Assembly: GCA_002269645.1 (NCBI GenBank)
Contig: NIVC01000184.1
Span: forward strand, 434,001 to 498,000
Direction: 5' to 3'
Source of the DNA: Macrostomum lignano
Lineage: Eukaryota
DNA: 64,000 nucleotides
Made by a program: the position numbers and the translations under genes. Position 1 is the stretch's first letter. Each line of letters begins with the position of its first letter. The notes beneath the pieces were generated by a model that saw only the letters and a program-made list of their open reading frames with translations, ran no database searches and was not told the DNA's origin. This document shows positions 1,621-60,599 of the stretch, piece after piece.

Positions 1621-4600
1621 GTCTAGACCACGACATTCCAAAGCTGGGTCGCAGCAAAGCTGTGATCGTTTCCGGCATAGTATTCTCTGCCAACCGCGAC
1701 GTTGCAATGATCCAGGAGGCCAAACCATCTGCCCGAGGCCTCTGGTACCTGCCGGCTGGCAGACTCGAACTTAATGAGTCATTGGAAGTAAGCAATAACT
1801 GCAATAGTTATTTACCATTATTTTAAATGATCTGCAAACATTGATCTTTAAAAAGTAAAGCATTAGTGTGCATTCAAGAGAATCATCTTGCCTATCTGAA
1901 ACACTGTTTGTGTCCCTGAAAATATTGTTTAATAAACTTTTTTTACCTAAAGGGCCAGATACAGAATCTAGCACAGGACTGCGGGCCAGAGGGGAGAGGA
2001 AAGGGAAGAGAAAAGAGACGAGAGACGAGAGAGAAGAGAAAAGATATGAGATTTGAAAAGAGAGCTGAGAAGAGACACAAACCTCGAGCGGACCGGATTG
2101 CTATTGTGAAATTTCAAAGGACCCGAGGGCCGGATAGAGAGGCTTGGCGGGCCGGAGTTTCTCGACCCTTGGTTTAAAGCATGTAAATCTTTAATCCTTT
2201 GAATAAATCCTTTCATAATTTATTCAAACCAAAACACTGGTACATCCCAGACCAATGAATCACATTTCCAAACGCTTTGGCATTTGGAACACCAAAAAAG
2301 TAGACAACTTGGAGTATTTCGACTAAAACAGCCAGATGGATGCAGGATGAAGATGTTACCGTGACAAGAGGGTTACAGAGTCGCAGTTTTAGAAACGCGT
2401 CTAAAAAGACTCTCAGACCAAAAACCGACGCTAAAACAGCGCTAATTTTTCTTACGGTATAAAAAATTCCTGCCATTTCGTCTGTTTTCTAGGACGCGGT
2501 CAAGCGCGAATTCCTCGAAGAGGTTGGACTGCAATTCGAGCCACGCCTATTAGTCAGCATCGAATGCCGCGACTGTCATTGGATTCGCGTCAACTTTCTT
2601 GGCGAAATTGTCGGCGGAAAGTTGAAGGCAAGTTTGCTGTTTTTTTTCTTCTAGTCAATTATTTGGCCACAAAACCATCTTCAGTGTATATATACTTAAG
2701 TTAAAAACTTGATTTGCATGTTGACTCTGATAGATTTCTTGTAGTTAATTTAACAAGGAATTATATTTTGCGTTCGCCAACCACACTGCACTGGTCAGAC
2801 GACCTATTAAATTTTGACGCTTGAGGTTGGAGACTAGCTTTGCTTTGGTAGAGGTTGTTGATTAGAGGTTAGTTTTGGCCTTGACCTTTAGAAGTTAGCG
2901 TTGCTTTATACGAGCTACGAGCGTAACACTGAGACTTGGACGCTGACAGACTCGCTCGAATAGCAACAGGTCTGATTCGTCTAAGCGACCCTTTGAAAAC
3001 GTTACCGTGACAAGAATCGCAAAAGAGTCATTGCAAACAACTCACTAGTGAGTGCCTCTGACGACTCTTGTGACTTTTTTACCGACTCAAATGACTGTAG
3101 AGGCGACTGTTGAGCCACGAGCGCATGGTTGTAGAATGGTAAAATGATTCGCGAAAAATTAAATAAGACTAGTAAGAAAAAGTAAGACTAAATTAGAGTT
3201 GCTATACATGTAAATGCGAAATGCGATTCTATAATTCATAAAGTGATGCAGACGCGCTTTTAGACTCCTTGCGTCACCCCAGTGTTGTTTCAGAGTCGCA
3301 AACAATAAAACGCCTCAAACTGACTCTTAGGCGCTGCTTTTGACTGCAGGCGCTCCAATGCAGAGGACGGGCACTCGCTCGGCGTTTTGTCGATTTTCAG
3401 TCTATCTTAATCTTATTTTATGCTATCTCTATCTTAACCAGTCTGTCAGCAAATATGAGCACTATCACGATGCTGTTTGAGATACTTATTTATAAATTAT
3501 TTATATCATACAACCGCAATTTCAACTGCAGAACAAACCGGACGAAGAGTCTCTATGCGCCAAGTGGATCCCGTTGAAAGACGTTATTGGGTAAGTTGAT
3601 TAAGAATGTATAATTACATGTCTACTAGAAGTAGTATGCATTATTTAAACTGTGCACGAAGCAAGTATGTTTAGAAGTTACACGTAACTAATTAAATTAT
3701 TTCAGAGCGCGCATTGAACTTCGGTGAGTTATCAAATTTTGTCTTTAAAAATGTCACACACTCACATATATCTTACATTACTTCTGCATAGCTAATAAAC
3801 TAACCAAATTCAGTTCAGCAGACATAATACCACTGTTAGTATTGGCTAATCATTTGGACACTCGCCGGAAGAAGCCATCGATTCCGCGTCTGCCGTTAGC
3901 AGTCAGCTGGTCGGCGTGTCACGTGCGGCTGTTCATACATTGTCCGGGTGACGCTGTCAGCAGCGATACGGACTCGTCTGTGTCGAAGGTGCTCTGTCGA
4001 GTGCTGCCAGATGGCGCCGGTGCCCGGCTGCCTGTGGTGCGAATGCAGCACCCGGGTAGCTTCGGGGTCCTTGCCGGCACTCTGACTGAAAAGGTGACGT
4101 ACTAACTATAGTTTCTTAATGATTTTTTAGCATTTTAGACCACCGCTTGTCAATATCGAATTTTTAGACAAGTCAATTAGCACTGACATTGTCATCCAAA
4201 GGCACTAAAAGACAAAAATATTCAATTAGTAGTAGTATGATATAAAGGTCTGAGCCACACTTATTGCTCGGGCGCAGTGCGCGCCAGCTCGCTGGATGAC
4301 TCAGCCCCTTATATCACACTACTACTACCAGGAGGTCAGAGTTGCAAGGTGTCTGAGATAAATATATTTTGTGTGAGGGTGTTGAGGGTGAGGGCATGTG
4401 TGGGCATTGGCATGTGGAATATTTCGCAGAACACAGATTTTTCAGAATTTTTATACTTTTAAAAAAGGAGGGCGCCCTCGCCCTCATGCCCTCACTCATT
4501 TTTAAAATCACAAAAATAAGTGAAAAATGACTAAAAACAGGTGAAAATGGTCTGAAAACAGCGATTTTTGTGTTTTTCAAATATTTTGAAAAGGTGCAAT

Positions 4601-7600
4601 TTTCACGATTCCAGCTCTAAAACCATGAGAAAAGTTGGATTCACGGGTCAATTCAATGCAATTTCAGGTATATACAATATGAAAGTGTCATCCAATTTAA
4701 CGATAGTAAATTTTAAATACATAAAATGGCCTTCAGTAAACCATTATTTCCAGGAAATGCTTTAGATATTCAGTCAGCTATAACAAAACTACCACCCATC
4801 TTCTGCACGATACTTTTACTGGGTCTTCTGTTTGCAATTCATTCAGATTGTATGCATGTGTAATGTTCGTCATTTTTGTCTATTTTTAGTAACAGAAAAA
4901 TAGACGAACTGGAGAGAAAGAATTGGTTGCCAAAATCCAAAACCAAAACCAAAGCTAAAACTTTTTTGGTCGGATGATTTGGTCGCGAGTATTGGTCAGA
5001 TTGAAATGTTTAGTGGGTGAGCGGGGGTAGAACCTCTACAGTATCTATTGAAGTGGCAAGTCTACGGGGGTCAGACAATAGCTGGCCATATTGTTGCGGT
5101 GTGAGCTTGTTTGTGTGTAGCGCGAATAGAAGCCCGAATTCCTGTGTTAGTAATCAGACGGTGTCTGCGACCCTTCGGGGCGATCGAGTGAAGTTTGCCT
5201 ACTTGCTTTGCTATAGCCGACCATATTGTTGCAATGCAAACTTGTTTGTGTGTAGCGCGAATAGAACCTCGAATTCCTGTGTCAATGCAATCAGACTGTC
5301 TGCGACCCTTCGGGGCAATTGAGTGAAGTTTGCCTACTCTGCCAAAAAACAACTCTGAGTCATAATGTAAGCAAAGAGGTCATGCAAGTTTCGAACTATT
5401 CAAAAAATACTTTGTGACTTGAAAAATGAAAACTACATGCCTAAATATTTCCTAGAAAAAGTGGAAGCTAATAACCCAAATGTACGAAATGCTCTACCAA
5501 AAAATACTATGATTCTATTATATTTTCTCAAATTAAAACCCACACTCGAAAGTCTCGACTAATTGCAGAAATTGATAAAGCTTACGATGAATATAAAGCA
5601 GAAATATTAAAACACACCGATTGTAAATGTCCCCCATATTTGTATTCATTCAGAGTATATCTTCACATGTTGATAAATGGGCATTGATTTCGAGACAGCA
5701 CATAAGGAATGATGAATTTTTCGTCATGCTGAAATTGAACATTTTCAAACTCCCCATAACCTTTGAGAAGTAAATTAAAACCGATAAAATATATCGTTGA
5801 ATTTATTTTTAATAAAATGGAAGGAAAAAATCAAAACGATTTAAGTGTCTCTCCTGTGATCGTACAGGATCCGCTTCAAAACCATGATGCACCACCACCA
5901 CCAAGATTGACAAATTTAAAACAAACAAAATCGTACGATAAACTAATTAATCTAAAACTAAAACGTAATTTTAGATTTGAAAGTTGCAGTATAACATGGA
6001 ATAGTAAAACAAAGAAAAAAATACCGTCAGGTATCCCAACCAAAGCAGATAGGAATTCAACCTCCCCACCATTTCGACCAGAGGTAGACAACATGATTTG
6101 GATAGATACTCGAAATTCAAATATAACCATAATCGATATTGATAATGCTGACCTATGCCCTAAGTTGAATGAACTGTGTATGACTCATTGTGATTGGATT
6201 GTTCAGACAAACAAGAGTCACCACTTTTACTTTAACAAGGTAGACAGATAAAAGTAACGATTCAACAAAGTGTGGGTTTTGATATTCCGGCTTTAGTATT
6301 TGCTATTATGCCGATGATGAAATTAAGGAATACAAACGTATAAAGCCCGAAGCTTTAATAGACATGCCAGATGTAATTATTAATGAGATAAATAGATTAA
6401 TTTAGCCACAGGATAAAAAACAAAACCAAGAATCCGATAAACAGGCACTAAAAAGCACCGTTCCATCACCCACTTGTGAAGGAGTTTCAAAGTTGTTAAA
6501 TATAATACAACACAAAAACCAAGACTATTATTTTTGGTACAAGGTAGCACTCATACTCCGCGACATAGACAGTGGTGATGAAATTTACAAAGTATTCACT
6601 GATTGGTCAAAAGTAAATTATGATAAGTTCGATTCCGAGTCATGTAAAAAAGTGTGGAATAGCACCAGTGCCAGCTCTGCTGATGCACAGGACAGACTTA
6701 CTATCGGTACGTTGAAGAAATGGGCTAGTGAAGAAAACTATGGTAAATATAAGGAATGGAAAAGCAAATATGATTATTATGGTAGGATTTAGTATCTTGA
6801 TGATAATTTCACTGACGTTAACATACCAACGTTGTTTATGAATATAAGAAGAATAATATAATTTACAATAGCGATGGTATTTACTATTTTGATGATGATA
6901 AGTGGAGAGAACTAAGTAGTATAAATGACATATTTCTTAAAATATCACACCTTGTTAGCAGTGAGCTAAACCACCGAAAGACTAGACTTGAAATTGCAAT
7001 TAAGAAGGCTGATGATAAAGAGAAGTTAAAAGCACTTGAAAAGAAACTAAAGAACACAATGAAGAATATAAATTCAATACAAGGAGCCAACAAACTCAAA
7101 CAGGTAATTACTTTGTTCAAAGAGAGGTTTACTAACAATGAAATTGAATTCGACATGAAATGGAATTTGCTGGGTTTGACGATGGAGTATATGACCTCAT
7201 TACAGGTGAGTTTCGCTAGTATAGATATGACGATTACGTTACTAAATCGGTGGGATATAATTACTCGGATGTACTTAGAGTGAGTGATGACGACTATGGC
7301 TTCATTGTTAATCTGCATAACCAAATCCATCCAGATCCAGAGAACAGAAAGAGTTGGGAATCCGTTATAGCCACAGCTCTAATGGGTAAGAATTTTGAAA
7401 ACTTTATAATGTTTGATGGCGCTGGTGGAAATGGCAAGGGGGTTGAGGACAACCTACTTCTTAGAACTCTAGAATCTGATTATGCAGCACCACTCAGTCC
7501 TGATGTTTTGAATTCACCAATAAGAATAGACAAGCCACAACCAGCCCTAGCACAAATTAATAAAAAGAGGTTGGTTATCAGTCAAGAAGTAGGCGGTGTC

Positions 7601-10600
7601 TTGAACAATGCATCAATAAAATTACTAACTGGTGGTGGGGTTATCCAAGCTACCATGGTAGAAATTTATATTCAAGCCAGTGTAATGTCGTTCTACACGC
7701 AACTCTGATAGTCGAATGCAACAACAAGCCTGACTTCAGACAAAATATTGGAGATGCGGAGAAGAGGAGAATTATCAATGTTAATTACCCGTGCAAATAT
7801 ACAACAGATAACGAAATGATTGATCCTGAGACACACACTTACAAGGCCGATCCATATTTGAAAAGTGAGGAGTTTAAGACTAAATATAAGTTTGCAGAGA
7901 TGAAACACCTACTAGAAATTTTCAAACAAACAAAAGGCGAAATATATCTATCGGAAAACGTAATTGAGAACACTAATGAATTCATACAGAATTGTAATTG
8001 GTTCGCGCACTTCTTTGAAGAGAATTATGAATTTTTAGAAACTGAGGAAAAAAATTTGTGCCTATTAGCGAAATTCACACTGCCGCAAGAGAGAGTGAAT
8101 ATTATAGAAACCTATCTAAATCAGAAAAACTAGAATTTCGACAGCAATGCGTAACTGATTTCTTCAAGAATCACAATGATTATTGTAAGTATTATAAGGA
8201 TAGATATAGGCGTAGGATAGATGGTAAACAACATGAAACTAGAAATGTGTTGCTACAGTGCAAGAAAAAAATAAACGAAGATGTTATCAATGAGATTACA
8301 TTGGTTGATAAAGAATAGATCTTATAGGATCCAAATAATATCTTTTATCATCTAAGTGACTCATTGTTTGTTTCATAATATCACGAATATATATTTTATT
8401 TCTATATTTTATATATTTTACAGTCATGCTTACATGGCTTCTTCTAATCTCTTTGTAATCTGTCAATAGTATGTTTTTAAATGTTTCAAACTTTATATTT
8501 GTACTGCTTTTATCAACTCCCTTGATCTTAACACACTCTCCTGAAACCGTATTGAAAGCATACTCCTTTGACCGCAGGAATACAGCTTCGAAAATTATCG
8601 AGCCATTCATTTGACCTTATTCAACCCGAGTCATTTGATATTCACTGGTAACTTTGATAACATTCTTTGTTTGTTCAAGAATTAGTGCAAAAATTAGTTC
8701 AAGAATTTGTAGCATTGTTAGCTGTATTAACACTTTTGCAATCATTGTACCAACTCCGGAGGCTGCTCCGATACCACCCAAAATTGCTGTTAGTAAGCCT
8801 AATAGAGGAATTATTCCACCTTCATGTTCTTTCTGTTTGTCTTGCAATTTTCGAATCTTCTCTTTAGAAAGATACCGCTTTTGCTTATTGACAGTAACAT
8901 ATCTTGGTTTCCCCTCTCGAACATATCGATTGAGTCTGGCTTCAGTGTTTTTCTCGCTCATTTTTAAGGTCAGAATTTCTTCAAACCATTGCCTTGTCTC
9001 AAAGACACTTGAGACTGTTCTGCTGATCCTAGAGCCTTTTTAACAATATCTTGAATGGCCTTGTTTGATTGTGAAGCTATCTGTTGCTCTTCTTCCATTC
9101 TTTTCTTTGCTTCTTTCTCTCTACGTTTTTTAAAAATATATTCCAGTTCCTCACCTGCTTTAGACATGTCACTGTATATTTTCTTTGCGTCGAATATGTT
9201 TTTAGATGCTGTTGCTGTTTTACCTATGGCATCAGCTCCACTCACAATTTTACTTCCATGATTTGATAAAAAGTTTGTGACACCACTGATCATATCACCG
9301 ATTCCTTCACCCTCTTTATTAACTAGTAGTTGTGAATCAGACGTTTCAATCTGACCTTTCGCCCGTTTGCAGTTTGTTCGGTAAGCGCTCGTTTTTAGTT
9401 GAAAAATTTGCTGGTAGAAGCTGGGATTTGTAAAATGATCCAATAATTTCTTCTCCATTCTCATCCTCAATAATGTAAGTTATGGGATTTGAGTACACAA
9501 ATTTCTTAATCGTAAAAACCTCCAATAATTTTCCAATAACCCTTTCGAACCTTTTCAAAGTGCTCTTTGAATCTATAGATATGAACTTTGTCACCTACTT
9601 TAAAGTTTGGTTTCTCATTTGAAACCTCGAAGGAAGGCTTTGGTACTCGCTCAGGATGTTTAGATGCTTCTGAAGGAGTTATCAGAATCTCTGAATGGAT
9701 TGTGTTGTTGTACTTATCAACAATAGCTGGCAATATGTGGAGCCACTTCTGGTTTCCTTGTAGATCAAATTCAAACCAGAGTTTATTTGTGAGAGTACGA
9801 TTGAACCTCTCAATCATTGCATTCTTAGACTCGCCATAAATTGAAAACATCTTGTTAATATACTCCCCGTTTTCATCTTTCTTTCTTATGTTGTCTTTTG
9901 AAAACGAGTATAGCTTGTACATATGCTAATTATAAAACTCCTTGCCTTCATCTACACAAAGTCTCTCTGATCGTCTTCCTGATTCCTTAAATACTTTTTG
10001 GAAAGCTTCTGCAACTTCCGCTCCCGTCTTTGTTTTCAAAGGAACTGCCCAAGCGTAACGTGTAAAATCATCTATGATAGTGAGTGCATATTTGTAACCT
10101 CTTTCAGGAGGAAGGATTATTATGTCTGCATGCCAAATTGTGTCTTTTGCATAGTGAATCATTTTTCTAAACAGTCTTGGTTTTCTGTTTTCCCTATGCA
10201 GCTTCACAGCATCTTCATAGCTAAGACCCTTTCCATAAATTGTTAGACAGTCTGTACAATTGTTGGGGTTGTGAGTATGAATGCCTAATCCAAACCGAAC
10301 TTTAGCTTTGATAATACGCTTTACTAGATTTCTAATGAGTCTCTCTTTCACAGACAAGTCACTGGTTGGAATAGCATCTAAATCAGTTATCATTGTTTCA
10401 TCAGCAATATGCTTCTTTGCTAGAGCTTCCTCTGGAGTTGAAGACGTTTTTTCAGCATCTCTATAGCTTTTGTCATGATAGTACGAGCGTAAGCAGTCCA
10501 ATCTATTGGGTTAATTGGTAGACTGTCATACCGAGGCCAGTCTGTAATTGGATTGAGTCTTTTGTCTAAATTTGTACCAGGCAGTTGTTCCTCAATCTTT

Positions 10601-12486
10601 CGAAAGAGGCTGTACTTTATCTTAAGGCTTCATCAGGATTGACCAGATCCTTCAGCCCCACCTCCATTAAGTCTCTGAACCTTCTCCATATCCTTGTCAA
10701 CTTCGTTCGGACTTAGGAGCTTGGCTGCGGATTTCCACCATGTCCTCAAGCTTGTTACCATTGGGAACAGGAATTACCTGTGTTCCTTCAGAAGATTTCT
10801 CAACTGAAGTGGTACTTGAGGCTGTTGTTGACGGAGTTCCCGCAATTCGAAGGTGTCGCCTATCATTAAGCACTTGTTTAATGTTGGTTATAATGTTTTT
10901 GTATTGATCTCCATAAAGAAATTTCAATGCAAATTCTCCTGGTATAAGGGTGATTCCATTGTCTAGTAAAATATTCTTAGGTTCCTTTGTAGTTTTATTG
11001 ATGCATACATAATACAACTGGTAGGTGGGATAAGAATTTGTATAGTCTAATAGTTTCTGATAATTCCTTTCACGACTTGATGAATTGTCCGTGTTATCAG
11101 AAGATTTAAGCTCTAATGCAATCTTTCGGTCAACGTGAACCAGGTCTATCTTTTTTACCTTCTCGAATCCAAAATAATTTTCTGCTAATATTTCATATAG
11201 TCTGCCTAGTCTCATTTGAATAACTTTAATCTTGTGTGAAATCTTTAACTCTTCTTGGAAAAGATCATGAAGAATTTGATCATGCCCAACCTTATCATCA
11301 ACTGGTTCAGTATAGAATTTTTCGAACTGTTTGCTCCATTTTTAGTTTAGAAAATTTAACAAGTGCTTATTCTATGACTAACAAGGACATTGACTTCCTC
11401 ACTCAGGCCACAACGTAACCTGCGAAAGAATACCCAGGAATATGAAATTCGCCAGGATGTTTTCCAGTGAAGAAGATGGGGGGGTAGTTTTGTTATAGCT
11501 GACTGAATATCTAATGCAGAACCTAGAAATAATGGTTTACTGAAGGCCATTTTATGTATTTAAAATTTACTATCGTTAAATTAGATGACACTTTCATATT
11601 GTATATACCTGAAATTGCATTGAACTGACCCGTGAATTTAACTTTTCTCATGGTTTTAGAGCTGGAATCGTGAAAATTGCACCTTTTCAAAATATTTGAA
11701 AAACACAAAAATCGCTGTTTTCAGACCATTTTCACCTGTTTTTAGTCATTTTTCACTTATTTTTGTGATTTTAAAAATGAGTGAGGGCATGAGGGCGAGG
11801 GCGCCCTCCTTTTTTAAAAGTATAAAAATTCTGAAAAATCTGTGTTCTGCGAAATATTCCACATGCCAATACCCACACATGCCCTCGCCCTTAAGCACCC
11901 TCACACAATATATAAATATATATATATATATTTTTACATATTTATATACTCATCACACCACCTTGCAACTCTGACCTCCTGGTAGTAGTAGTGTGATATA
12001 AGGGGCGAGTCATCCAGCGAGCTGGCGCGCACTGCGCCCGAGCAATAAGTGTGGCTCAGACCTTTATATCACACTACTACTTCAATTCTTTATAAATTGT
12101 TCTATAAACGTCTACTGCTTATGCTCAGGTATTTTAACGTCATTTTTTATATTTCATTCGATGTTCAGTTAACAGGCCGTAAGGTGCAATTTAGAGCGGT
12201 GCTTCACAGCGAATTCCTTTCGGCTAACAACGCCAACTGCGGAATATTTCTCACTCTGCTGTGCCGTCTGTTGCCATGGCAACAGCAGTCCGCCTCGGCA
12301 ACCGCAAAGCAACCTCCAGCGTTGCATCAGAACTTTGCTTGGCTTCCGTGTCCTCAGCTAGCTGACCCGCTGGTTTTGCCGGACGAGTTTGAGCAGACTC
12401 TGTCGAACTCTGCCAAACTGAACGAACATTGCAGCCACCTGTGCCTGCTAGGAGCCTGCAGTCATTCTGATTTTCGGCTCAATTGA
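1621..12486 (+). CDS. NUDT18: Nudix hydrolase 18-like (8-oxo-dGDP phosphatase); exons 1621-1787, 2493-2627, 3532-3590, 3706-3723, 3814-4093, 12169-12486; first exon(s) upstream of the window
   Basis: Spliced exons read IQEAKPSARGLWYLPAGRLELNESLE|DAVKREFLEEVGLQFEP (Nudix box) ...WIRVNFLG...GGKLK|NKPDEESLCAKW...GARIELRSADIIPLL...|LTGRKVQFRAVLHSEF...CGIFLTLLC. All junction phases are consistent; matches NUDT18 signatures from memory. Confidence 0.88.
4228..4804 (+). repeat. Left terminal inverted repeat of the Polinton-like element
   Basis: Reverse complement of 11471-12081 with a few substitutions and indels; the mirrored spurious ORFs 4314..4580 (-) and 11696..11974 (+) share the same N-terminal sequence. 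Confidence 0.95.
5085..5340 (+). repeat. Two-copy ~133 bp direct repeat inside the Polinton, next to the left TIR
   Basis: CCATATTGTTGC...GTGTGTAGCGCGAATAGAA...GTCTGCGACCCTTCGGGGC...GAGTGAAGTTTGCCTACT occurs twice. Confidence 0.85.
5817..8318 (+). pseudogene. Fragmented primase (prim-pol) - PriCT-2 - D5-like SF3 helicase
   Basis: Pieces read TIIDIDN...VQTNKSHHFYF (prim-pol); YYFWYKVALILRD...FTDWS...CKKVWNS...LTIGTLKKWA (PriCT-2); DDGVYDLITGEFR*YRYDDYVTKSVGYNY (D5_N); FDGAGGNGKG (Walker A), KRLVISQE, IKLLTGG. Broken by frameshifts and stops. Confidence 0.85.
8296..8610 (-). pseudogene. C-terminal remnant of a Polinton-type family B DNA polymerase
   Basis: FLRSKEYAF...KIKGV...FETFKNILL...MSHLDDKRYYL resembles the pPolB C-terminus (LRSKxY, KGV, DDKR). 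No exonuclease or palm motifs seen. Confidence 0.7.
8617..8961 (-). CDS. Polinton small basic/amphipathic putative virion-core protein
   Basis: A basic N-terminus is followed by EGGIIPLLGLLTAILGGIGAASGVG, resembling the GG-F/I-xP hydrophobic motif of Polinton/adintovirus core proteins. Assignment is inference. Confidence 0.5.
   Translation of the reverse strand: MSEKNTEARLNRYVREGKPRYVTVNKQKRYLSKEKIRKLQDKQKEHEGGIIPLLGLLTAILGGIGAASGVGTMIAKVLIQLTMLQILELIFALILEQTKNVIKVTSEYQMTRVE
8970..9470 (-). CDS. Polinton hypothetical protein (putative core protein)
   Basis: 166-aa open frame with GEGIGDMISG and a C-terminal GNGL, GxG-type motifs common in Polinton core proteins, plus a charged helical segment. 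Confidence 0.45.
   Translation of the reverse strand: MRMRMEKKLLDHFTNPSFYQQIFQLKTSAYRTNCKRAKGQIETSDSQLLVNKEGEGIGDMISGVTNFLSNHGSKIVSGADAIGKTATASKNIFDAKKIYSDMSKAGEELEYIFKKRREKEAKKRMEEEQQIASQSNKAIQDIVKKALGSAEQSQVSLRQGNGLKKF
9346..10690 (-). pseudogene. Parvovirus-type PLA2 domain in frame with a retroviral-like integrase (frameshifted)
   Basis: PGTNLDKRLNP...PINPID / YYHDKSY...KAKVRFGLG (PLA2X-like) is followed without a stop by LHRENRKPRLFRKM...TIWHADI...ALTIIDDFTRYAWAVPLKTK...LCVDEGKEFYN, then after a frameshift MIERFNRTL...YNNTIHS...FKVGDKV, then after another VFTIKK...PITYIIEDENGEEIIGSFY. Confidence 0.88.
10697..11339 (-). CDS. PD-(D/E)xK restriction-endonuclease-like protein (5' frameshift near 11315)
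   Basis: IQMRLGRLYEIL...KIDLVHVDRKIALELKSSDNTDNSSSRERNYQKL carries a D...ExK catalytic pattern and an NTxNSSS motif reminiscent of type II REase-like proteins. The frame extends upstream (YTEPVDDKVGHDQILHDLFQEELKISHKIKVIQ). Confidence 0.55.
11471..12081 (-). repeat. Right terminal inverted repeat of the Polinton-like element
   Basis: Inverted copy of 4228-4804 ending CACTACTACT, followed by TCAATT. Confidence 0.95.
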
Positions 12487-15515: not shown

Positions 15516-18500
15516 TCATCTCAGAGCGGGCAGCAGGTAGTTGCAGGCGAGGCGCACCCAGCCGGGCATGCCGTCGCCGCTGCGGCAGCCGATGCGGTTC
15601 AAAGTAACGGCGAATGACGGCGCGCCCAGCCAGAGGGCGCGGATCGGCGCCAGCAGCGCGTGCGACACGGCGTGCGGCAGGCAGTCGATGTAGCAGGAGG
15701 CGAGAACGCCGTCAATAGCGATGCAGCCGGTCAGGGTGAACGGAGCCAGCAGGCCTTGGCGAGTGACGCCTCGCTGAACTTCGACCACCGTCTCGAGCCG
15801 CGGCTGTCGTCCAGCTTCGTCCAGCAGTTGCACGGCGAGTCCCGGCCGGATGTCGCGCGCAGGCACGGCGGACAGACGGGTCGCCCGACCGTCGGGCTGA
15901 GCCGAGGTGAACAGCAGATGGCCGGAGCTGAGCGTCAGCTGGGCGCTCGTGGTCGACACCGTCACAAAGTCGGACGACCAAGCAGTCTCGTCACGGTGGC
16001 CCCACATGAAGACGGGCGAAAAGGCGGGCCGGCCGTCCTGCAGGCTGAGTACTGGCTGCCCCGCAGAGAGCTCGGAGAGGCGGACCCGGCCGTGCGGAGT
16101 CATCACCGTCGCGTCCAAGGGGAAGCACTTTCCTCTGCTGAGAACGGTAAGTTCAAGTTTTTTTAATTTATCACATTTTCCTGCGACAGACTACTTTTCA
16201 GTAGCAATATTGATGTAAAGAGTGCGCCTGTCGTGTTAATTGTGGCCAGCAAAAACCCCTCCGCGGAGGAAACCTTCCTATGGGGAAACTTCCTGCGAGG
16301 TTACTTCCTGCGAGGTTACTTCCTGCGAGGTTACTTCCTGCGGGGTAATTTCCTGCGGGGAAACCATTTGCGATTTACTTCCTGGGAGGAAACTTCCTGC
16401 GAGGTTACTTCCTGCGAGGAAACTTCCTGCGAGGTTACTTCCTGGGAGGAAACTTCCTGCGAGGTTACTTCCTGGGAGGAAACTTCCTGCGAGGTTACTT
16501 CCTGCGAGGTTACTTCCTGCAGGGAAACTTTCTGCGGGGAAACTTCCTGCGGGGAAACTTCCTGCGGGGAAACTTCCTGCGGGGAAACTTGTTAGTGGCT
16601 CGCACTGACATATCGGTATAAGACATACATGTATTAAAGGAAACAATAAGAAATCTCCATCGATTTACTCTATCATTACCGACCCAATCTGAGCAGCCAT
16701 TTCGTTAGCAACTCTGTCCATCTCTGTACTCATTGCCGCATCGCGTCTCGTTCGAAACTCTTCTCGAACTCGATCGCGCTCTCGCTCCTGCAAGTTGCGC
16801 AACCGCTCGTCCTCTTGCCGATTCAACTCCTTCGTGGCTTTCTGCAGCTCCAATTGCGCAAATACGAAATATTCGTTGGTGTAAGTCGCTCGGAAACTGG
16901 AAGACTCAGCTTCGGAATTGATTCTAGCCAAGTGATCGACACTGCACACCAGGTTGTAGACTTGCTCGGCCTGCGTTGCTGCACTGCGATTGCGGCTGTT
17001 GTCCAGCATGGTGATTCTGTTACCGCATCTCGTTATTAAGGAATCCAGCGCGCTGAGCTGTCGACGAGCGTTCTGCACCTCCTGGTAGAAGCGCAAGTCG
17101 CTGTTATCGAACGCATCGCCGTGTGTGTATGCGATAATTGCGTACCTGTGAATAGAAATCGATTAAGACACTTTTCAAAGACCGATAGGGGGTGTAACAG
17201 GACGTAAAACTTGAAGTTGTTTCACGAGAACAATGCACAAGGCTGGCAGTGTTTCCCTGGACTCGAAGACATCTCACCAAGCTGGTAGTGTTCCCCTGGA
17301 CTCGGAGACATGTCACCAAGCTGGTAGTGTTCCCCTGGACTCGGAGACGTGTCACCAAGCTGGTAGTGTTCCATTGGACACGGAGACATCTCACCAAGCT
17401 GGTAGTGTTCCCCTGGACTCGGAAACATCTCACTAAGCTGGTAGTGTTCCCCTGGACTCGGAGACATCTCACCAAGCTGGTAGTGTTCCCCTGGACTCGG
17501 AGACATGTCACTAAGCTGGTAGTGTTCCCCTGAACTCGGAGACGTGTCACCAAGCTGGTAGTGTTCCATTGGACACGGAGACATCTCACCAAGCTGGTAG
17601 TGTTCCCCTGGACTCGGAGACGTGTCACCAAGCTGGTAGTGTTCCATTGGACACGGAGACATCTCACCAAGCTGGTAGTGTTCCCCTGGACTCGGAGACG
17701 TGTCACCAAGCTGGTAGTGTTCCATTGGACACGGAGACATCTCACCAAGCTGGTAGTGTTCCCCTGGACTCGGAAACATCTCACTAAGCTGGTAGTGTTT
17801 CCCTGGACTCGGAGACATCTCACCAAGCTGGTAGTGTTCCCCTGGACTCGGAGACATGTCACTAAGCTGGTAGTGTTCCTCTGGACTCGGAGACATGTCA
17901 CCAAGCTTTTAATGTTCCCCTGGACTCAGAAAAATCTCATCAAGCTGGTAGTGTTCCCCTGGACTCGGAAACATCTCACTAAGCTGGTAGTGTTCCCCTG
18001 GACTCGGAAACATCTCACTAAGCTGGTAGTGTTCCCCTGGACTCGGAAACATCTCACTAAGCTGGTAGTGTTCCCCTGGACTCGGAAACATCTCACTAAG
18101 CTGGTAGTGTTTCACTGGACTCAGAAACATCTCTCGCACTGCCTATCCTCGGCGTGAAAATTTGGATGTGTTACATTTCCGCTTTAGCCCAACTCTGTGA
18201 CATTCGTGTGTAAAATTTGACTAAGCCCACAACAGTTGGCACTGGCTCACAATGACTCACTTATAGAACATCTCTCCAAACAGCTCCTCAAGCTTCTCCA
18301 CAGCTTTCCGCTCTTCGTCAGTGAACTTCACGTCCAACCGCAGTGTGATCACAAATGCGTGAACTCCGCCTTCGGCAAACATAGCGATGGCGTGACAGAT
18401 TTGTCTGAGGGCAGCTTCCGGGTTGCTGGTGTCCATTGTGCCGGGAGTGTCGACCACGGTTAGGTACCGACCCCTCACTAGTCTGGTCTCCTTTTTGCAG

Positions 18501-26420: not shown

Positions 26421-27569
26421 TCAACTGTCATGACAGCTGGACATCAAATGGTTGAGCATGTGCTCCTCGAACGCGGCTTGACTGACTTGGTGACCGCCGC
26501 ACACTTCGCATTGCCACTGCTCACCAGCCCCGGCTGTTCCAGAGTTTCCGCAGGCGCCGCAGCCGCCCTGCTGGTGCTTGCGCAGATAGGCCGACCGCTT
26601 GAACCCGCGGCCGCAGCTCCTGCACGCAAACTGCTTGTTCGCGGCCTCCTTGGTTTTGACCGCCCGACAGTCGGGCCGCAGGATGGCGTCGATGCTGAAC
26701 TGCAGACCGCTGCTGCTGCACTTCCTGCCGCTTATGGCGACGTCAGGCTTCGGCTTGTGCCAGCGTCGGTGGCTGGCCAGGTTGGCGGAGCAGTTGAACA
26801 GCTTGCCGCAGTCGGAGCACCTGTACTCCTCGTACTCGATGCACGGGCACCGGTGCTGAGCCAGCTGGAACGCGTCGCCGAAGGTCACCCAGCACAGCTG
26901 GCAGACGAACTCGCCAATCCGATTGACAATTTTTGACAGCGCAGCCTCGGCCTCGGGCGTCACTTCGACGAAGTTAAATGTGGTCACAATGTCCAGCTGG
27001 GCGGCTTGGCTTGTCGGGCGAGCGCGACGGCTTCTTGTGGACTTCGACAGAGCGCGGATGATTGTGCCGCTGACTGGGCTGGCCTTCTGGCTGGGGCAGC
27101 ACCTCTGAGCTGGCGGACTCGGCTTGCTGATGACGCCGCTTGGCTTGGCCTTCGGCGTTGAGACTGTCGGACGAGGAGGCGTCGAAGGCGGCGGCGGCGG
27201 CGGCGGCGCTGGAGCTGTTGACTTGGCCAAATCGGCCTCTTTGCCGGTGCCGCCCACAGCAGCAGGCTGACCGGTGCAAACCAGTGGCGGCTGCACCGGC
27301 TGCAGGGCAGCAACAAACTGAAGGTATTGCTGCTGGATTTGCTGCTGGATTTGCTGCTGGATCTTCAGCGACTCAAGAAACGATACGGCGTTTACAGCGG
27401 CTGAGCAGTGAGGAAAAAATCCACCAAAGTCTGGTACTGATGCAGGAGACGGCAGCTGAGGCTGCTGGGGCAGCATCTGATGCAGCATCTGAGCTCGAAT
27501 GGCAGCTGGGAGAGCGAAGCCTCCATCATAAAACTTGTACGGGTTGAACTTCGGATCGTTCGCCTCCAT
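26421..27569 (-). CDS. INSM1: Insulinoma-associated 1 / nerfin / egl-46-like C2H2 zinc-finger transcription factor
   Basis: IGEFVCQLCWVTFGDAFQLAQHRCPCIEYEEYRCSDCGKLFNCSANLASHRRWHKP matches the INSM1 ZF1-ZF2 signature, followed by two more C2H2-type fingers. Start ATG (MEANDPKF) is uncertain. Confidence 0.9.
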   Translation of the reverse strand: MEANDPKFNPYKFYDGGFALPAAIRAQMLHQMLPQQPQLPSPASVPDFGGFFPHCSAAVNAVSFLESLKIQQQIQQQIQQQYLQFVAALQPVQPPLVCTGQPAAVGGTGKEADLAKSTAPAPPPPPPPSTPPRPTVSTPKAKPSGVISKPSPPAQRCCPSQKASPVSGTIIRALSKSTRSRRARPTSQAAQLDIVTTFNFVEVTPEAEAALSKIVNRIGEFVCQLCWVTFGDAFQLAQHRCPCIEYEEYRCSDCGKLFNCSANLASHRRWHKPKPDVAISGRKCSSSGLQFSIDAILRPDCRAVKTKEAANKQFACRSCGRGFKRSAYLRKHQQGGCGACGNSGTAGAGEQWQCEVCGGHQVSQAAFEEHMLNHLMSSCHDS

Positions 27570-28029
27570 GCGGTGTCTCCGGGGAATTCTTACTTTCGAC
27601 AGGTAAAGCTCGGGTTTGCTATTAAGAGCAGCGAATTGAGGACTCAACCTGATAAGCGAAGGGAGTTTTTTGTGCTCGCACAATCTGCAGAATCCATCCT
27701 CAGCTTCAGCCTCAGCCTCCTCCGGAATCCTTGCAAGCAGGCGCGCGAGCCAGCCAACCGCCGGCTCTCATTCCCTCACTCTGCCTCCAGGCCCGCCAGC
27801 ATTCCTTCGTTCTTCATCTCTCTCTCCTGACTGCAGGCAGAATCTCATTGGCTGGGAGGCGGACTCGGACCTGGTGGGGGTGGGGGGGCTACCGGAGCAA
27901 CTCTCCTATTTTCCCCATCATTGTCTTCTCCATTACGCTGTCTTTCGGCGCTATAGATTCTCATCAGACCTTCATTTGAGATCCCACAACTTGAGCTGTG
28001 AGATTTCAAAGCTTGAAGATTTCATTATT

Positions 28030-33703: not shown

Positions 33704-35046
33704 TCAAGCCAATCCAGAAGTCTGCCGCTTCTTCTGCAGCAGCTCCGGCTCGGTGGACATCCAAGCCTGCAGCATCTTGATGTCGAGCAGCATAAGCCGC
33801 AGCGCCATAGTCCAACGTTCGTCCTTATTTCCAGCCCGAACAATTGCGAATCTCTGGCCGGAGTCTTCAATCTCTTTAGGCGGGTGCAGCGGATATGGCG
33901 CCAGCCGGTCTTTGCCGTAGCGATCGCGAACGAAGGCCAGCAGCTCAGTGACGCAGCTGAGGTAGGCGGACATGCCCGAGTCGAATGCCGAGTCTGAGAA
34001 CAAGCGGCCGTGGCTCGAATAGAGCGGCAGCGATCTGAGGGGAGTGCGATTGAGGGCTAGGATTAGGGGCAGGTGATCCCCAAGGCTTCGAGTGAGCATG
34101 ATTGATGGGGGCAAGCTCGAATCTTCCCAAGCTCGAATCTTCTCAAGTTCGAACCTTCCCAAGCTCGAATCTTCCCAAGCTAGAATCTTCCCAAGCTAGA
34201 ATCTTCCCAAGCTCGAATCTTCTCAAGCTCATATCTTCCCAAGCTCGAATCTTCTCAAGCTCGAATCTTCTCAAGTTCGAACCTTCCCAAGCTCGAATCT
34301 TGAAATGGTTCAAACTAATTCTTCAGGATGATGTAAAATTTCCAGCTTGTCAAAGTAACCCTATGAACGATTAGAAAGTCAGAGCCGCTGTATACATGAA
34401 AAAAGTTTTAATTTGCATACAACACTACTGAACTGAATTTCCTGAGTAGAAAAATACGGACATGATGAAGTAAAACGCAAAAAATAAGTAAAACATTTTG
34501 AATTTCTGCACCTTCCCGTAGCTAAGAGTCGCATCTCGGACTGGCTGGCGCAGGGCACAACGGTGTACACAGTTGAGGCGAAGCCCAGCCTGTGGGACAC
34601 GGCCTGCAGCAGCAGGGCGCACTGGCCCCAGCCGGCATTCAGCTCGGCCCAGTCGATCTGTCCACCCGCCGGCCGGCCCATTCGGAAGCCGCCAATGCTG
34701 GCAATGTGAGCGTCGTACCAGATGTGAAACGCCGCCCCGAGTACGCTGGTGTTCTGCAGCCTGTTCAGCTCCGACTCTGCGTAGGCCTGAGCCATGCATA
34801 GAGAGAAGGGGTGGGGTTGCTCAACCGCGAATTCAACCCTTTGAACCCTAGCATTCAAAGTTTACTACGATACATATCGGTGATGGAACAAAGTCCCGCT
34901 ATAGACAGACAGACAGAAAGAAAGACAGACAGACAGACAGACAGACCGACAGACACACAGACAGACAGACAGAGAGACAGACAGAGAGACAGACAGACAG
35001 ACAGAGACAGACAGACAGACACACAGACAGACAGACAGACAGACAC

Positions 35047-35133
<87 letters not shown>

Positions 35134-35174
35134 CTAAGACAGACAGACACACAGACAGACACACAGACAGACAC

Positions 35175-35241
<67 letters not shown>

Positions 35242-35294
35242 CACAGGCAGACAGACACACAGACAGACAGACACACAGGCAGACAGACAGACAC

Positions 35295-35327
<33 letters not shown>

Positions 35328-37045
35328 TAGACAGACAGACAGACAGACGGACACACAGGCAGACAGACACACAGGCAGACAGACACACAGACAGACACAC
35401 AGACAGACCTGCTGGTTCCTGGTAGCGGACAGCTCCTCATCCAGCAGGAACAGCTGCCGCTTGAGCTCAGAGTAAGCGTGCTGCAGCTGCTGGTGCTCGG
35501 CCGTCAGAGCGGATTTCTTTGCCTCCTCGGCGTCGGCTTCGGCTCGAACTTCTGCCAGCTCGGCTCCGGTGGACTCGAGCTCGGCGCGTAGCTCAGCCTC
35601 CTCTGCCTCCAGCCGGGCCAGCGCCGCCTCTTCATCGTCGTGGTCGGTGTCGGCGTCGTCGGCGGGATCGGCCGACACCTCCGAGGCGTCGTTGTCGAAC
35701 CGACGGTTTCGTCCGTCGGTGCCGGCCAGTGTCAGGTGCTCCAGGTAGCGGCGCATGCAGGCCAGCTCCTCTTCTAGCTGGCGTACTCGGTCGGCCTGTG
35801 AGGTGAGCAGTGAGGGAGGACTGTTTCTTAGAAACGAGTTTAAATCTTAGGGTTTAGATTAGGGTTTAGACTAGGGTTTAGATTAGGGTTTAGATTAGGG
35901 TTTAGATTAGGGTTTAGATTAGGGTTTAGACTAGGGTTTAGATTAGGGTTTAGATTAGGGTTTAGACTAGGGTTTAGATTAGGGTTTAGATTAGGGTTTA
36001 GACTAGGGTTTAGATTAGGGTTTAGATTAGGGTTTAGACTAGGGTTTAGATTAGGGTTTAGATTAGGGTTTAGATTAGGGTTTAGACTAGGGTTTAGATT
36101 AGGGTTTAGACTAGGGTTTAGATTAGGGTTTAGACTAGGGTTTAGACTAGGGTTTAGATTAGGGTTTAGACTAGGGTTTAGATTAGGGTTTAGACTAGGG
36201 TTTAGACTAGGGTTTAGATTAGGGTTTAGACTAGGGTTTAGACTAGGGTTTAGATTAGGGTTTAGATTAGGGTTTAGACTAGGGTTTAGATTAGGGTTTA
36301 GACTAGGGTTTAGATTAGGGTTTAGACTAGGGTTTAGACTAGGGTTTAGACTAGGGTTTAGATTAGGGTTTAGACTAGGGTTTAGACTAGGGTTTAGATT
36401 AGGGTTTAGACTAGGGTTTAGATTAGGGTTTAGACTAGGGTTTAGACTAGGGTTTAGATTAGACCCGATTGATAATTAGATTAGAATAAACAATCGAAGT
36501 CCCCAACCTGCAGCTCAGCAAGAACATCGGCGCAGTCGGTGCACAGCGGGTGGTCAGCCGCGCAGTTGGCGTTCAAAAATTCAAATAGGCGTTCGAATAC
36601 CGCCAATCGAGTGCTCAAATTCTGGCTAATGCTGGGCGCGCTGTCTAGCAGCAGGAAGTCGTGACTTGCGGACTCTGAGTCGCAGCTGGCAGACATTGTT
36701 GTGCACTGTTGCTGCTGCTGCTGTTGCTGTTGCTGCTGCGAGTCGCCACTCTGTTCTGAGTCAGCCTGAGGCATTGTTGACGCAATAATGCAAAATCTGA
36801 ATTAAGATTTTGCACAAGTATTTCATGCAGAGGAAATTTTTGGCCAGACTCACCATAGCAACCGATCGACTTTGAAACGTATTGATTGTCGCCTGCACGG
36901 CCTCCCTGTCGAGGCCTCGCAGAGTGGCGTCTAGGTTCAGACGGACGCAGCAGCGCTGACAGCGGAATGACGACTGCAGCAGAGCCTTGGCGGCCGTGGC
37001 TGGCGAGTCCTTGCTGACTGGCGACTGGCGACCGCTGGAGTCCAT
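33704..37045 (-). CDS. BECN1: Beclin-1 / ATG6; exons about 37045-36854, 36765-36508, 35795-35409, 34786-34512, 34034-33704
   Basis: [15 protein letters not shown], a coiled coil, [17 protein letters not shown]...IGGFRMGR...[22 protein letters not shown]...[12 protein letters not shown] and [15 protein letters not shown] are Beclin signatures. Phases are consistent; the exon 2 acceptor is least certain. Confidence 0.93.
34105..34300. repeat. 16-bp tandem repeat (AAGCTCGAATCTTCCC)n in the last BECN1 intron
   Basis: Direct reading. Confidence 0.93.
34902..35408. repeat. (GACA)n microsatellite in BECN1 intron 3, abutting the donor site
   Basis: The minus strand reads CAG|GTCTGTCTGTGTG... Confidence 0.96.
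35845..36462. repeat. 12-bp telomere-like array (TTAGGGTTTAGA / CTAGGGTTTAGA)n, about 50 copies, in BECN1 intron 2
   Basis: Direct reading. Confidence 0.97.
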
Positions 37046-58643: not shown

Positions 58644-60599
58644 TCACTTCCAGAGAGTGGCAAACAGTGGGTAAGCATACTGAGTCTGCTGGTAGGGCAA
58701 AATGCATGCCTTCCTAAACATTCTGGAGAGGGGAACAGTGAGCAACTTAGATGAGAGTCCAGAAACACAATAGACATGTATCTTACGGGAATCAAATGGG
58801 TAATCATATGCACTGGAGTACTTCTTATAGCGCTTGCAAACAACTTCATAGGAGCTTCCAGAAGTAAGAAAGTGGCAAATCTGGTAGCAGCAGTATTCAC
58901 GGTCAAAAAAGTGACAGTCATTGATGTTTGAGGAAAAGCGAATACCATTTATAATGCAGCAGGAGAACCTACTCACTCCTATGGGCAGGTGGGCATCTGC
59001 CAAAAGAAACTTAAAGACTACTGCCTCAGTGCAAAGAGCCTCAACCCTTGCTTCATATACGGCAAGTTCCCGAATTCTATTAACACATTGAATAAGCGGA
59101 AGGCGACTGCCTCGAACACACTTTTTTAGTGTCTGCATAAAATTCTCGAAAGTAAATGCACTAAAATTGTCAAGACAGCCATACCGTAAGCAATCATTTG
59201 CCAAGTGGGACAATGAATGTACATTATAGACCAACATATGAGATCCATAAGTGGTCTTACAATCACTGATGAAATGATTAAGGAGCTGACTGGCATACTG
59301 TATTAAAACTACATTGGAAAGGTGATCACATAAAATAAAAATAGCAGAATGCAACAGTAGAAAGTTCTTGAGGATCCTTCGGCTTATTCCCCTAGTATTG
59401 TTCATTACAGTAACACCACTGTACAGCAAAAATGAGCGAAATTCAGTTGCCTTCCAGAACTTCAAGCAGCTTAAAGACCGTGGCTTCCTTGCAAACTCTG
59501 TTGGAAAATAGTTTCGAAGGCTGCATAGATTCTCGGAAAGACAGTCTACTAGCCGATGGCCAAATCGAGTAGCCAGTGGTCCCTGAATCCAGTAGAGGAA
59601 GAGCCGGCGCATGACTCCAAGCAGAACTAAGTGCATATAGTCATAGGGGAATGCATGCACCATGTCTATTGGCAGTTCTTCAAAGGGGCTTGGGTGGTCC
59701 CCTATGTGGTGATTTGGGTCATGCTTCTCTCGAAAGGAGGCATCAGTCCTTGATGGGCAATTGAGCTCATCAAACACTACCTGCTGATGGTACTCCCCAT
59801 GAATGGTACATTTGTCACAGGATGAGTAACCACTATGGCCCTTGATGCACTTGATCAATGCCCTTGCTGGACGGTCTGCAATGACTTTCTCTAGAACTAC
59901 TTGGTCCTTGAGATCTTGAAGTTCAGCCACCAAATCCTTCAGAAATCCACAAACTTCTGGTTTGTTGACTCCAAAAAACAAAGCAATCACAAATGGACAT
60001 GATTGTGGAAATGAACCAAGAATAGGCCAGAAGCCTTCATTTTTGCTTTTGAAGATAGGCAGGCCATCAATGCCAATTGATAGCTTGAGGGGAGCTTCAA
60101 GCTGAGTGTCTTTAGGCAAGTTACTTCGAATTCCCAGGTATACAAACTCCCCAGACGAAAGTGGAGCTGTTGCAGTTTTCCTTGGTGTTTGCAACAAAGT
60201 ACGTGCAGATAGTGGTAGTTGTGGAAAGGCCCTATGTAGTAGGTGAAGCAGACTATCTAGTGCTGCAGCTGAGACCCTAAATTTGAGTGCCCATTCAGCT
60301 AAACTTTGTTCAATTGTTGGTCCATCCATCTCAGCTTCACTATCATCATCTGTCTCCTCTGGTGCAAATTCATCCTCAATGGCCCACTCCTCCTCAAGTT
60401 GCAAATTGTGCTCTTGCCCAGCCTCTCCCTCAGCAGATAAAGTATAAGCAGCTTCTTCATTGGCAGATCCTTGGCCATTATCTGCTTCTTCTTCACCATG
60501 CAGAGAATCACTTGGCAGGGCAGCTATTTCATCAAGCATACTAGCAAATCTCTTGTGTGCAGCTCGACGAACACTACGTGCACTTTGTTTATTGTCCAT
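58644..60599 (-). CDS. EnSpm/CACTA-type (CMC) transposase, uninterrupted ORF
   Basis: LSIGIDGLPIFKSKNEGFWPILG, VIADRPARALIK...GHSGYSSCDKC, PYDYMHLVLLGVMRRL, WKATEFRSFLLY, YNVHSLSHL and FSAFTFEN are typical of animal EnSpm transposases. Confidence 0.92.
   Translation of the reverse strand: MDNKQSARSVRRAAHKRFASMLDEIAALPSDSLHGEEEADNGQGSANEEAAYTLSAEGEAGQEHNLQLEEEWAIEDEFAPEETDDDSEAEMDGPTIEQSLAEWALKFRVSAAALDSLLHLLHRAFPQLPLSARTLLQTPRKTATAPLSSGEFVYLGIRSNLPKDTQLEAPLKLSIGIDGLPIFKSKNEGFWPILGSFPQSCPFVIALFFGVNKPEVCGFLKDLVAELQDLKDQVVLEKVIADRPARALIKCIKGHSGYSSCDKCTIHGEYHQQVVFDELNCPSRTDASFREKHDPNHHIGDHPSPFEELPIDMVHAFPYDYMHLVLLGVMRRLFLYWIQGPLATRFGHRLVDCLSENLCSLRNYFPTEFARKPRSLSCLKFWKATEFRSFLLYSGVTVMNNTRGISRRILKNFLLLHSAIFILCDHLSNVVLIQYASQLLNHFISDCKTTYGSHMLVYNVHSLSHLANDCLRYGCLDNFSAFTFENFMQTLKKCVRGSRLPLIQCVNRIRELAVYEARVEALCTEAVVFKFLLADAHLPIGVSRFSCCIINGIRFSSNINDCHFFDREYCCYQICHFLTSGSSYEVVCKRYKKYSSAYDYPFDSRKIHVYCVSGLSSKLLTVPLSRMFRKACILPYQQTQYAYPLFATLWK

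Follow-up and report, generated by a model that had tools for sequence, protein, structure and literature searches.

A short Polinton copy as the probable deletion derivative of an 18-kb parent with a primase-helicase, an exonuclease-truncated polymerase and a predicted self-splicing group I intron

Can a Polinton give up its own polymerase and persist as a compact, satellite-like element built around a primase-helicase? The question is raised by an element at 4228..12081 of the window (the whole 64,000-nucleotide stretch of DNA analysed here), for which the original prediction favoured such a lineage and named a deletion derivative as the alternative. The element is 7,854 bp long, has AGTAGT ends and is flanked on both sides by the 6-bp target-site duplication (TSD) TCAATT (4222..4227 and 12082..12087). 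Its terminal inverted repeats (TIRs) of about 580 and 615 nt are 91% identical with gaps counted; the left one (4228..4808, plus strand) carries the AGTAGT end and an internal imperfect hairpin of about 100 nt, and the right one lies at 11467..12081 on the minus strand. Inward of the left TIR are two 135-bp tandem copies (5078..5338) in a non-coding segment that varies between subfamilies, a plus-strand remnant of a small ORF (5441..5698; 113 codons in the full-length copy C2232) to which no family is assigned, and a disrupted prim-pol(AEP)/PriCT-2/D5_N/SF3 primase-helicase gene on the plus strand (5817..8318). Convergent with the helicase is a minus-strand C-terminal stub of pPolB of about 105-106 codons (8299..8612). 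It adjoins an 81-bp minus-strand island (8612..8692) that is the 3' end, the last 24 codons, of a major capsid protein gene, followed by a 17-nt filler (8693..8709) that resembles a local tandem duplication. Further along the minus strand are the 5' part of a 168-codon ORF with a hydrophobic glycine-rich stretch (8710..9039) and an unbroken 169-codon ORF (8973..9477), neither with a significant Pfam match, and the phospholipase-A2-like/rve integrase gene in two exons, the 3' exon at 9349..10581 and the 5' exon at 11418..11550 with its start codon inside the right TIR.

Much of this had been predicted correctly, namely the Polinton ends with their 6-bp duplication, the integrase (Pfam rve, PF00665, E 4e-10, above the Pfam cut-off) and the pPolB stub at the point of convergence (~100 amino acids as predicted, 106 codons as measured). 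The identity of the helicase also stood (PriCT-2 E 1e-10, profile matches to C962R and D5), but not its intactness. Set beside natural copies with unbroken frames, the helicase proves to be interrupted by 6 frameshifting indels and 3 stops, the integrase by 3 frameshifts and 1 stop. Judged by its reading frame, the window helicase is no working gene, and the state of the copy is one of ordinary decay. The statement that no capsid was recognisable is contradicted by the island at 8612-8692. Pfam also reports an Eco47II-like nuclease in the element, whose ORF and the group I intron around it at 10582-11417 are absent from the earlier account. Elsewhere in the window, inspection by eye picks out an ORF at 15516-16190 that we take to be Hint (Hedgehog-type) domain-like, one at 26421-27767 that is presumably an INSM1-like zinc finger, ORFs at 34379-35846 that we assume to be Beclin exon-like and one at 58644-60677 that we take to be transposase-like. 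Simple-repeat arrays, long and numerous, occur at 17-38 kb.

Longer copies with capsid, ATPase and protease genes, which had been proposed as the thing to look for, exist in the same genome. In the 764-Mb assembly, a search with the TIR returned 197 candidates and a search with the helicase 61, of which 40 were scored in each case, and 53 genome stretches were tabulated for TIR, helicase, pPolB, structural block and integrase. Ten of the 53 hold all five at full cover, and in six of these ten the element measures 17.8-18.7 kb end to end; a 6-bp TSD is readable at 9 of 14 listed ends. This parent form, called variant A below, encodes a DJR capsid (PF21738, E 2e-13), an A32 ATPase (PF04665, E 7e-6), rve and EndoVII. 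A 143-aa ORF with no Pfam match has H, D and Q..C residues in adenain order, a catalytic motif that we take as the mark of a protease-like gene, and a 263-aa beta-rich ORF, likewise without a Pfam match, sits in the usual penton place. By the features tested (TIRs, 6-bp TSD, rve, pPolB, DJR capsid and A32 ATPase) the parent is a Maverick/Polinton. It probably belongs to the group 2 Maverick-Polintons of the 2026 Bellas-type scheme, to which the phospholipase domain is the one pointer. Named relatives of its pPolB come mostly from molluscs and insects, the nearest from Mytilus. Together with the ORFs picked out by eye elsewhere in the window, these relatives point to a likely animal host.

The helicase belongs to this full gene set. 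At least half of it is found in 31 stretches, 21 of which also hold at least half of the pPolB body; three of the remaining 10 are the window locus, and the others end early or are interrupted (not each inspected). Counted from the polymerase, 23 of the 24 stretches with A-type pPolB contain helicase sequence. In the remaining one, C1101, a deletion has removed part of pPolB as well, and the left flank is common to C620, which has the helicase. A nested helicase insertion with a TSD of its own, the other outcome that would have spoken against the prediction, was accordingly rejected, given this 23/24 linkage and the lack of any flanking direct repeat longer than 7 nt near the helicase ends. 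Several further features of the family were observed. One subfamily has an inverted helicase-pPolB block and a 1.8-kb extra segment at several insertion sites (C4094, C4788, C67, C2696, C5112, C4019, C1830, C4665 and others). A weakly VLTF3-like ORF (Pfam E 0.018) occurs in C1101/C620 and in the related family C described below. An (A/T)(A/T)AAAATG(A/G) motif surrounds the start of most genes of C2232 and C2071, that of the helicase among them; it could, we presume, be a poxvirus-style late-promoter-like signal or only the host start context.

How the window copy came to be short is read from its junctions. Compared with C2232 it shows a jump of about 7.7 kb at 8612, which left the pPolB stub, and a second of about 1.5 kb at 8692/8710, which carries the 17-nt filler, a total loss of about 9.2 kb in two internal deletions. 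A genome search for the junction pattern finds the first junction only in the window and in C3326, and a compact family was rejected on that ground. Both C3326 and C3327 have kilobases of both flanks in common with the window at 94-99.5%, so the three represent a single insertion, either as haplotypes or as duplicates. In C3327 the junction is another one, with the capsid 5' end kept and the pPolB stub missing. Since different junctions retain different pieces, the inserted element was longer than any surviving version; and with the window junction confined to two haplotypes of a single site, there was no spread of the compact form. In the helicase, the variants that all three haplotypes share number 15 N, 33 S and 2 stops, compared with 47 N and 22 S among the rest. 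Integrase variants outside the common set (10 N, 21 S) are mostly synonymous, which suggests some conversion by other copies and not pure neutral decay. Between the haplotypes the element is 96-97% identical, a greater divergence than in most of its flanks (98-99%).

These junctions weigh heavily against the lineage first proposed, in which the primase-helicase replaces pPolB and capsids are borrowed. The window copy does keep both TIRs, the integrase and the helicase, and AEP-SF3 fusions often replace pPolB in group 2 Maverick-Polintons according to the accessible part of bioRxiv 10.64898/2026.06.19.733378. Yet a junction limited to two haplotypes of one site, a different deletion in the third haplotype, remnants of the capsid and pPolB genes where the junctions fall, 2 helicase stops common to all three and parents with a full gene set make such a lineage most improbable. 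Full-length relatives that carry the helicase beside pPolB are also what the original prediction had named as speaking against it, and these relatives have capsid, ATPase and protease-like genes besides a full-length pPolB. There is a slim chance, somewhat greater than for a compact lineage, that the copy first formed as a short non-autonomous derivative, was moved once in trans by a full element and then decayed: its TIRs are both intact, and it is not the only short derivative (C219, 5.8 kb; C1095, about 7.9 kb). Against such a passage, the pPolB stub and both ends of the capsid gene survive among the haplotypes, at differing junctions, which implies a longer inserted form. Loss of about 9.2 kb from an 18-kb parent in two deletions is thus the explanation that we prefer; the window copy is almost certainly a deletion derivative and the claim of a compact lineage is, with the same near certainty, refuted. 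Short 'helicase-only' Polintons, then, can be deletion artefacts of longer parents.

The parental helicase itself is well characterised by comparison. A profile built with 115 relatives matches ASFV C962R (E 5e-59) and poxvirus D5 (E 5e-49), and a fold search returns the same two as top PDB matches. PriCT-2, D5_N and the SF3 Walker motifs are present; in the AEP region the DxD, H and D motifs align with relatives, the Pfam Prim-Pol match is weak (E 0.005) and the model is partly of low confidence. On these matches the protein is assigned to the AEP/PriCT-2/D5-type SF3 class. A word-index homologue search yielded 5 hits among 8,000 scored, and HMMER yielded 11,995 matches at E<=0.001, the closest being unnamed metagenomic proteins at 39-43% identity. 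Viral contigs contribute two helicase loci at 31-32% identity without Polinton genes, and no pPolB match appears in the viral contigs searched; metagenomes contribute 462 loci, of which the best 80 were examined. Among these 82 outside loci, on contigs that are mostly short, an integrase is hit in two, an ATPase in one and pPolB in none.

The parental polymerase is unusual in its exonuclease domain. PolA, PolB and PolC motifs are kept, ExoI is altered with half of it missing, and the alignment has a gap over ExoIII, which is absent. A PDB sequence search does not recognise the protein, and a fold search does: the model (pLDDT 89.8) has phi29 polymerase as its top match (E 7e-17), with the lowest confidence exactly at the exonuclease gap. 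The altered ExoI and the short ExoIII region are each read in 22 of the 24 stretches with A-type pPolB, the pattern being unread in the other two, and the long exonuclease form is seen in none of the 24. From ExoII to PolA the A-type polymerase spans 171 residues, compared with 225-317 in 120 homologues; the four exonuclease acids are complete in 118 of these. Because that set was restricted to proteins of at least 1,046 residues, the search was repeated without length bias. Of the 81 new sequences that span the region, 77 have the full set of four acids; among the other four, three also lack PolA residues and look truncated, and one has a single ExoI change. The A-type ExoII retains its N and D, and one ExoI acid remains under either of two ambiguous alignments, so that the loss of proofreading by this polymerase is a prediction from its motifs. 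Against it stands the conservation of the exonuclease remnant itself: for variants shared between insertions, the N/S ratio (uncorrected counts, partial haplotype grouping) is 0.17 for the remnant with EndoVII included, 0.17 for the polymerase, 0.21 for the helicase core, 0.45 for the AEP domain and 0.13 for the capsid. The A-type polymerase and helicase are under purifying selection and the AEP domain under weaker constraint. In a quick tree the A-type pPolB is sister to that of family C of the same genome (SH-aLRT 99) on a long branch. As the polymerase belongs to an EndoVII-bearing Polinton clade and groups with a family whose exonuclease is intact, the loss looks independent of that in mavirus and Polinton-like viruses (PLVs).

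A second state of the same element sharpens the picture. Variant B (G000:C2071:3251-20645, L113-L115; also C781, C1449, C4675, C176, C25, C4832 and C3459) has 8.4 kb from capsid to integrase in common with variant A at 98-99% identity. It is 17.4 kb long, has a different TIR of 902 nt and encodes a pPolB of 1,276 codons with intact exonuclease motifs in the opposite orientation to that of A, its left breakpoint adjoining the start of the A-type pPolB gene. It is very young: the 902-nt TIRs are identical and the copies are 99.1-99.7% alike over a long block. By tblastn, none of seven variant B stretches has a helicase hit, and helicase sequence is absent from 11 of 13 stretches with B polymerase, which has at least 16 genome matches; C12 holds a helicase 5' fragment together with B polymerase, and the helicase piece of C1874 lies beyond the B element. 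Family C (G000:C2379, C1867, C1549, C632, C2512 and C283; L092-L107, L229, L230, L232, L235) encodes a pPolB of 1,300 codons with intact Exo motifs and likewise gives no helicase hit. In C3908 and C2167 an A-type end is joined to B polymerase. A tree of the integrase region, with an arbitrary root, mixes the two variants, with young A copies nested among B and older A copies outside; the exchange has therefore been repeated, and no single direction is claimed. Three further elements of 12.6-13.6 kb are bounded by B-type TIRs with inverted ends of about 2 kb (G000:C1157:303462-317100, C1638:176141-188744 and C3314:12807-26445), and two of these three, when examined, gave no Polinton gene hits.

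A swap of the replication module, which the original prediction had invoked, thus exists in the family but is of another kind: a helicase with an exonuclease-truncated pPolB is exchanged for an exonuclease-intact pPolB without helicase. By analogy, this contrast fits the exonuclease loss and helicase gain reported for mavirus. In its accessible text, Krupovic 2024 (PMC11161782) describes helicase gain accompanied by exonuclease loss in mavirus and PLVs, two independent cases that the pairing here matches. With both variant B and family C exonuclease-intact and without a helicase hit, and with the helicase core under purifying selection as pPolB is, we lean towards a functional coupling of exonuclease loss and helicase. 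Set against such coupling is the somewhat unlikely case of a helicase that is a mobile AEP-SF3 gene carried along without being needed, with the exonuclease lost by unrelated drift and their pairing no more than historical linkage. The link does rest on one loss event, no second family with both truncated exonuclease and helicase having been found and none of the 82 outside loci (the best 80 of 462 metagenomic and the 2 viral) giving a pPolB hit; where the context of the closest helicase relatives can be read, these lie in larger virus-like contigs that have no pPolB. The available part of bioRxiv 10.64898/2026.10.13.758929 argues that AEP-SF3 genes are mobile, and Yutin 2013 (PMC3671162), as far as its accessible text goes, has S3H encoded by some Polintons and the combination of pPolB and primase-helicase as uncommon. 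Helicase-bearing Polintons and swaps of the polymerase are both known already. For the paired exonuclease truncation in an EndoVII-bearing Polinton clade, no published report was found in a search that left subscription journals and supplements outside.

The integrase gene holds a further surprise. Its 5' part is split, within the phospholipase-like domain, by an insert of 836 nt (11417-10582, minus strand) that is present in 19 stretches and absent from 10; without it the frame encodes a whole phospholipase-A2-like domain (Pfam E 1.4e-8). The insert scores 88.2 bits against Rfam RF00028 (core at 10591-10930; gathering cut-off 50; E 4e-22). Further loci exceed the cut-off in 5 of 14 and 3 of 7 cases (8 in all), and none of the intron-less stretches scanned does. 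In the P1 helix the terminal U of the 5' exon pairs with G at the 5' site, the intron ends in a terminal G, and intron-less alleles exist at the same codon. On this fold and these boundaries the insert is identified as a group I intron. Its minus-strand nuclease ORF (10700..11339, with 2 frameshifts) extends into the ribozyme core, matches RE_Eco47II (29.7 bits, cut-off 25.9) and is predicted to encode a homing endonuclease; shared variants in it (4 N, 4 S) are too few to judge. Of 177 candidates from a genome search with the intron, 40 were scored, and these comprise 29 near-full-length and 11 partial matches. The integrase gene of family C carries, at the equivalent position, a shorter intron-like insert that reaches 71 bits in one of four loci scanned; the Eco47II-like gene of C2379 and C283, with about 68% identity, is not part of this insert but a separate gene immediately upstream of the 5' exon. 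A family C ORF of 209 codons, considered as the intron ORF, was rejected, being located upstream of the 5' exon.

Self-splicing is predicted from the intron's motifs, all six of those checked being kept in 15 of 18 copies. Among eight sequencing runs, which are RNA only by guess, two from separate studies (X6 and X10) contain a joint at the predicted sites; its ends and spacing fit, and the joined form is absent from the assembly. Two exon letters of this joint occur in none of the intron-bearing copies found, which makes an intron-less allele missing from the assembly an equally good explanation. A skip in X1, X2, X6 and X16 was rejected as splicing, being the intron-less genomic form. The lack of an unambiguous spliced junction in the eight runs, the coexistence of intron-less copies (10 stretches) and core columns that are only modestly less variable than the rest (8/88 versus 114/749) would agree with a real fold that has lost splicing, intron-bearing copies then relying on intron-less ones for integrase. 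We consider such a loss unlikely, given the kept motifs, the joint in two runs (of uncertain source copy) and the presence of the intron in young copies, with TIR mismatches of 2-3 in 560 nt for C2232, C4094 and C4788. A splicing-competent intron somewhere in the family is the probable state of affairs.

Taken together, the window element is best read, with a probability of about 0.8, as a disabled Maverick/Polinton copy, reduced from 18 kb by two deletions that removed about 9.2 kb, likely after insertion; its parent has a helicase and an ExoIII-less pPolB and likely replicates with both, and the integrase gene is interrupted by a group I intron for which self-splicing is predicted. This reading draws on the parent gene set, the deletion points, the motif loss, purifying selection, the sister variant B, and the fold and presence or absence of the intron. 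The integrase would have inserted the 18-kb element with a 6-bp duplication, after which repair-type deletions and point mutations would have accumulated separately in the three haplotypes. In the parent, protein-primed synthesis would start at the TIR, the SF3 helicase would unwind for a polymerase without an editing domain, and the AEP domain may prime or restart synthesis. Nuclease-driven homing would spread the intron between copies, and the intron would be spliced out of the transcript. A broader proposal is of an animal nuclear Polinton family with a mobile self-splicing group I intron and its own PD-(D/E)XK homing nuclease, at the same site in a sister family, and with a two-state replication switch on one capsid module, either a proofreading pPolB alone or a non-proofreading pPolB with primase-helicase; it is tentative, its odds falling a little short of even. 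That functional coupling and a splicing-competent intron are both true and both unpublished is similarly a shade less probable than the opposite.

Compared with known systems, the parent shares TIRs, the 6-bp TSD, rve, pPolB, DJR capsid, A32 ATPase and a protease-like gene with Mavericks/Polintons (Polintoviricetes, adintoviruses). It has the phospholipase domain that the accessible part of bioRxiv 10.64898/2026.06.19.733378 gives as common in group 2, but it holds pPolB and AEP-PriCT-2-SF3 together, not one replacing the other. In the available text of Jeong et al. 2023, Exo motifs are conserved across taxon groups, unlike the ExoIII-less pPolB of the parent, and pPolB swaps occur in nematode Polintons, where a near-identical structural module likewise goes with two polymerases in one genome; in the present family the helicase and often the TIR are exchanged together with the polymerase, and with them the state of the exonuclease. 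ASFV C962R and poxvirus D5 have the same AEP-PriCT/D5_N-SF3 architecture as the parent helicase, which is only 15-22% identical to them.

Group I introns of protist PLVs and animal mitochondria (RF00028) have the same core motifs, P1 U.G, terminal G and presence or absence at one site, and the intron described here differs in that it interrupts a protein-coding gene of a Polinton in the nuclear genome of what is probably an animal, and in its Eco47II-like ORF. They are given for PLVs of a few protist groups only (PMC12220804) and, among animals, for placozoans, corals and sponges only, mostly in mitochondria (PMC11835236); animal group I introns are thus catalogued almost only in mitochondria of a few non-bilaterian groups. 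No published report of one in animal Polintons was found, much literature lying outside the search. A nuclear intron with a nuclease ORF and at least 29 near-full-length matches would show Polintons bringing ribozymes into animal chromosomes.

A parallel in replication is that of mavirus-type virophages and the PLV pPolB-S1H (Tlr1-like) replicases, in which, by the accessible text of PMC11161782, an exonuclease-reduced pPolB is likewise found with a helicase. The parent differs from them in that its polymerase belongs to an EndoVII-bearing Polinton clade, its helicase keeps the primase domain and its exonuclease domain partly remains. The trade-off proposed between proofreading and helicase in capsid-encoding mobile elements has hitherto been based on distant lineages. 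With both states on a 98-99% identical capsid-integrase module in one genome, the trade-off becomes testable with two polymerases and one helicase. The available part of PMC4405056 has D5-like primase-helicases encoded by some polintoviruses and invokes a pPolB-plus-D5 stage for giant-virus origins, and it is this stage that the parent resembles.
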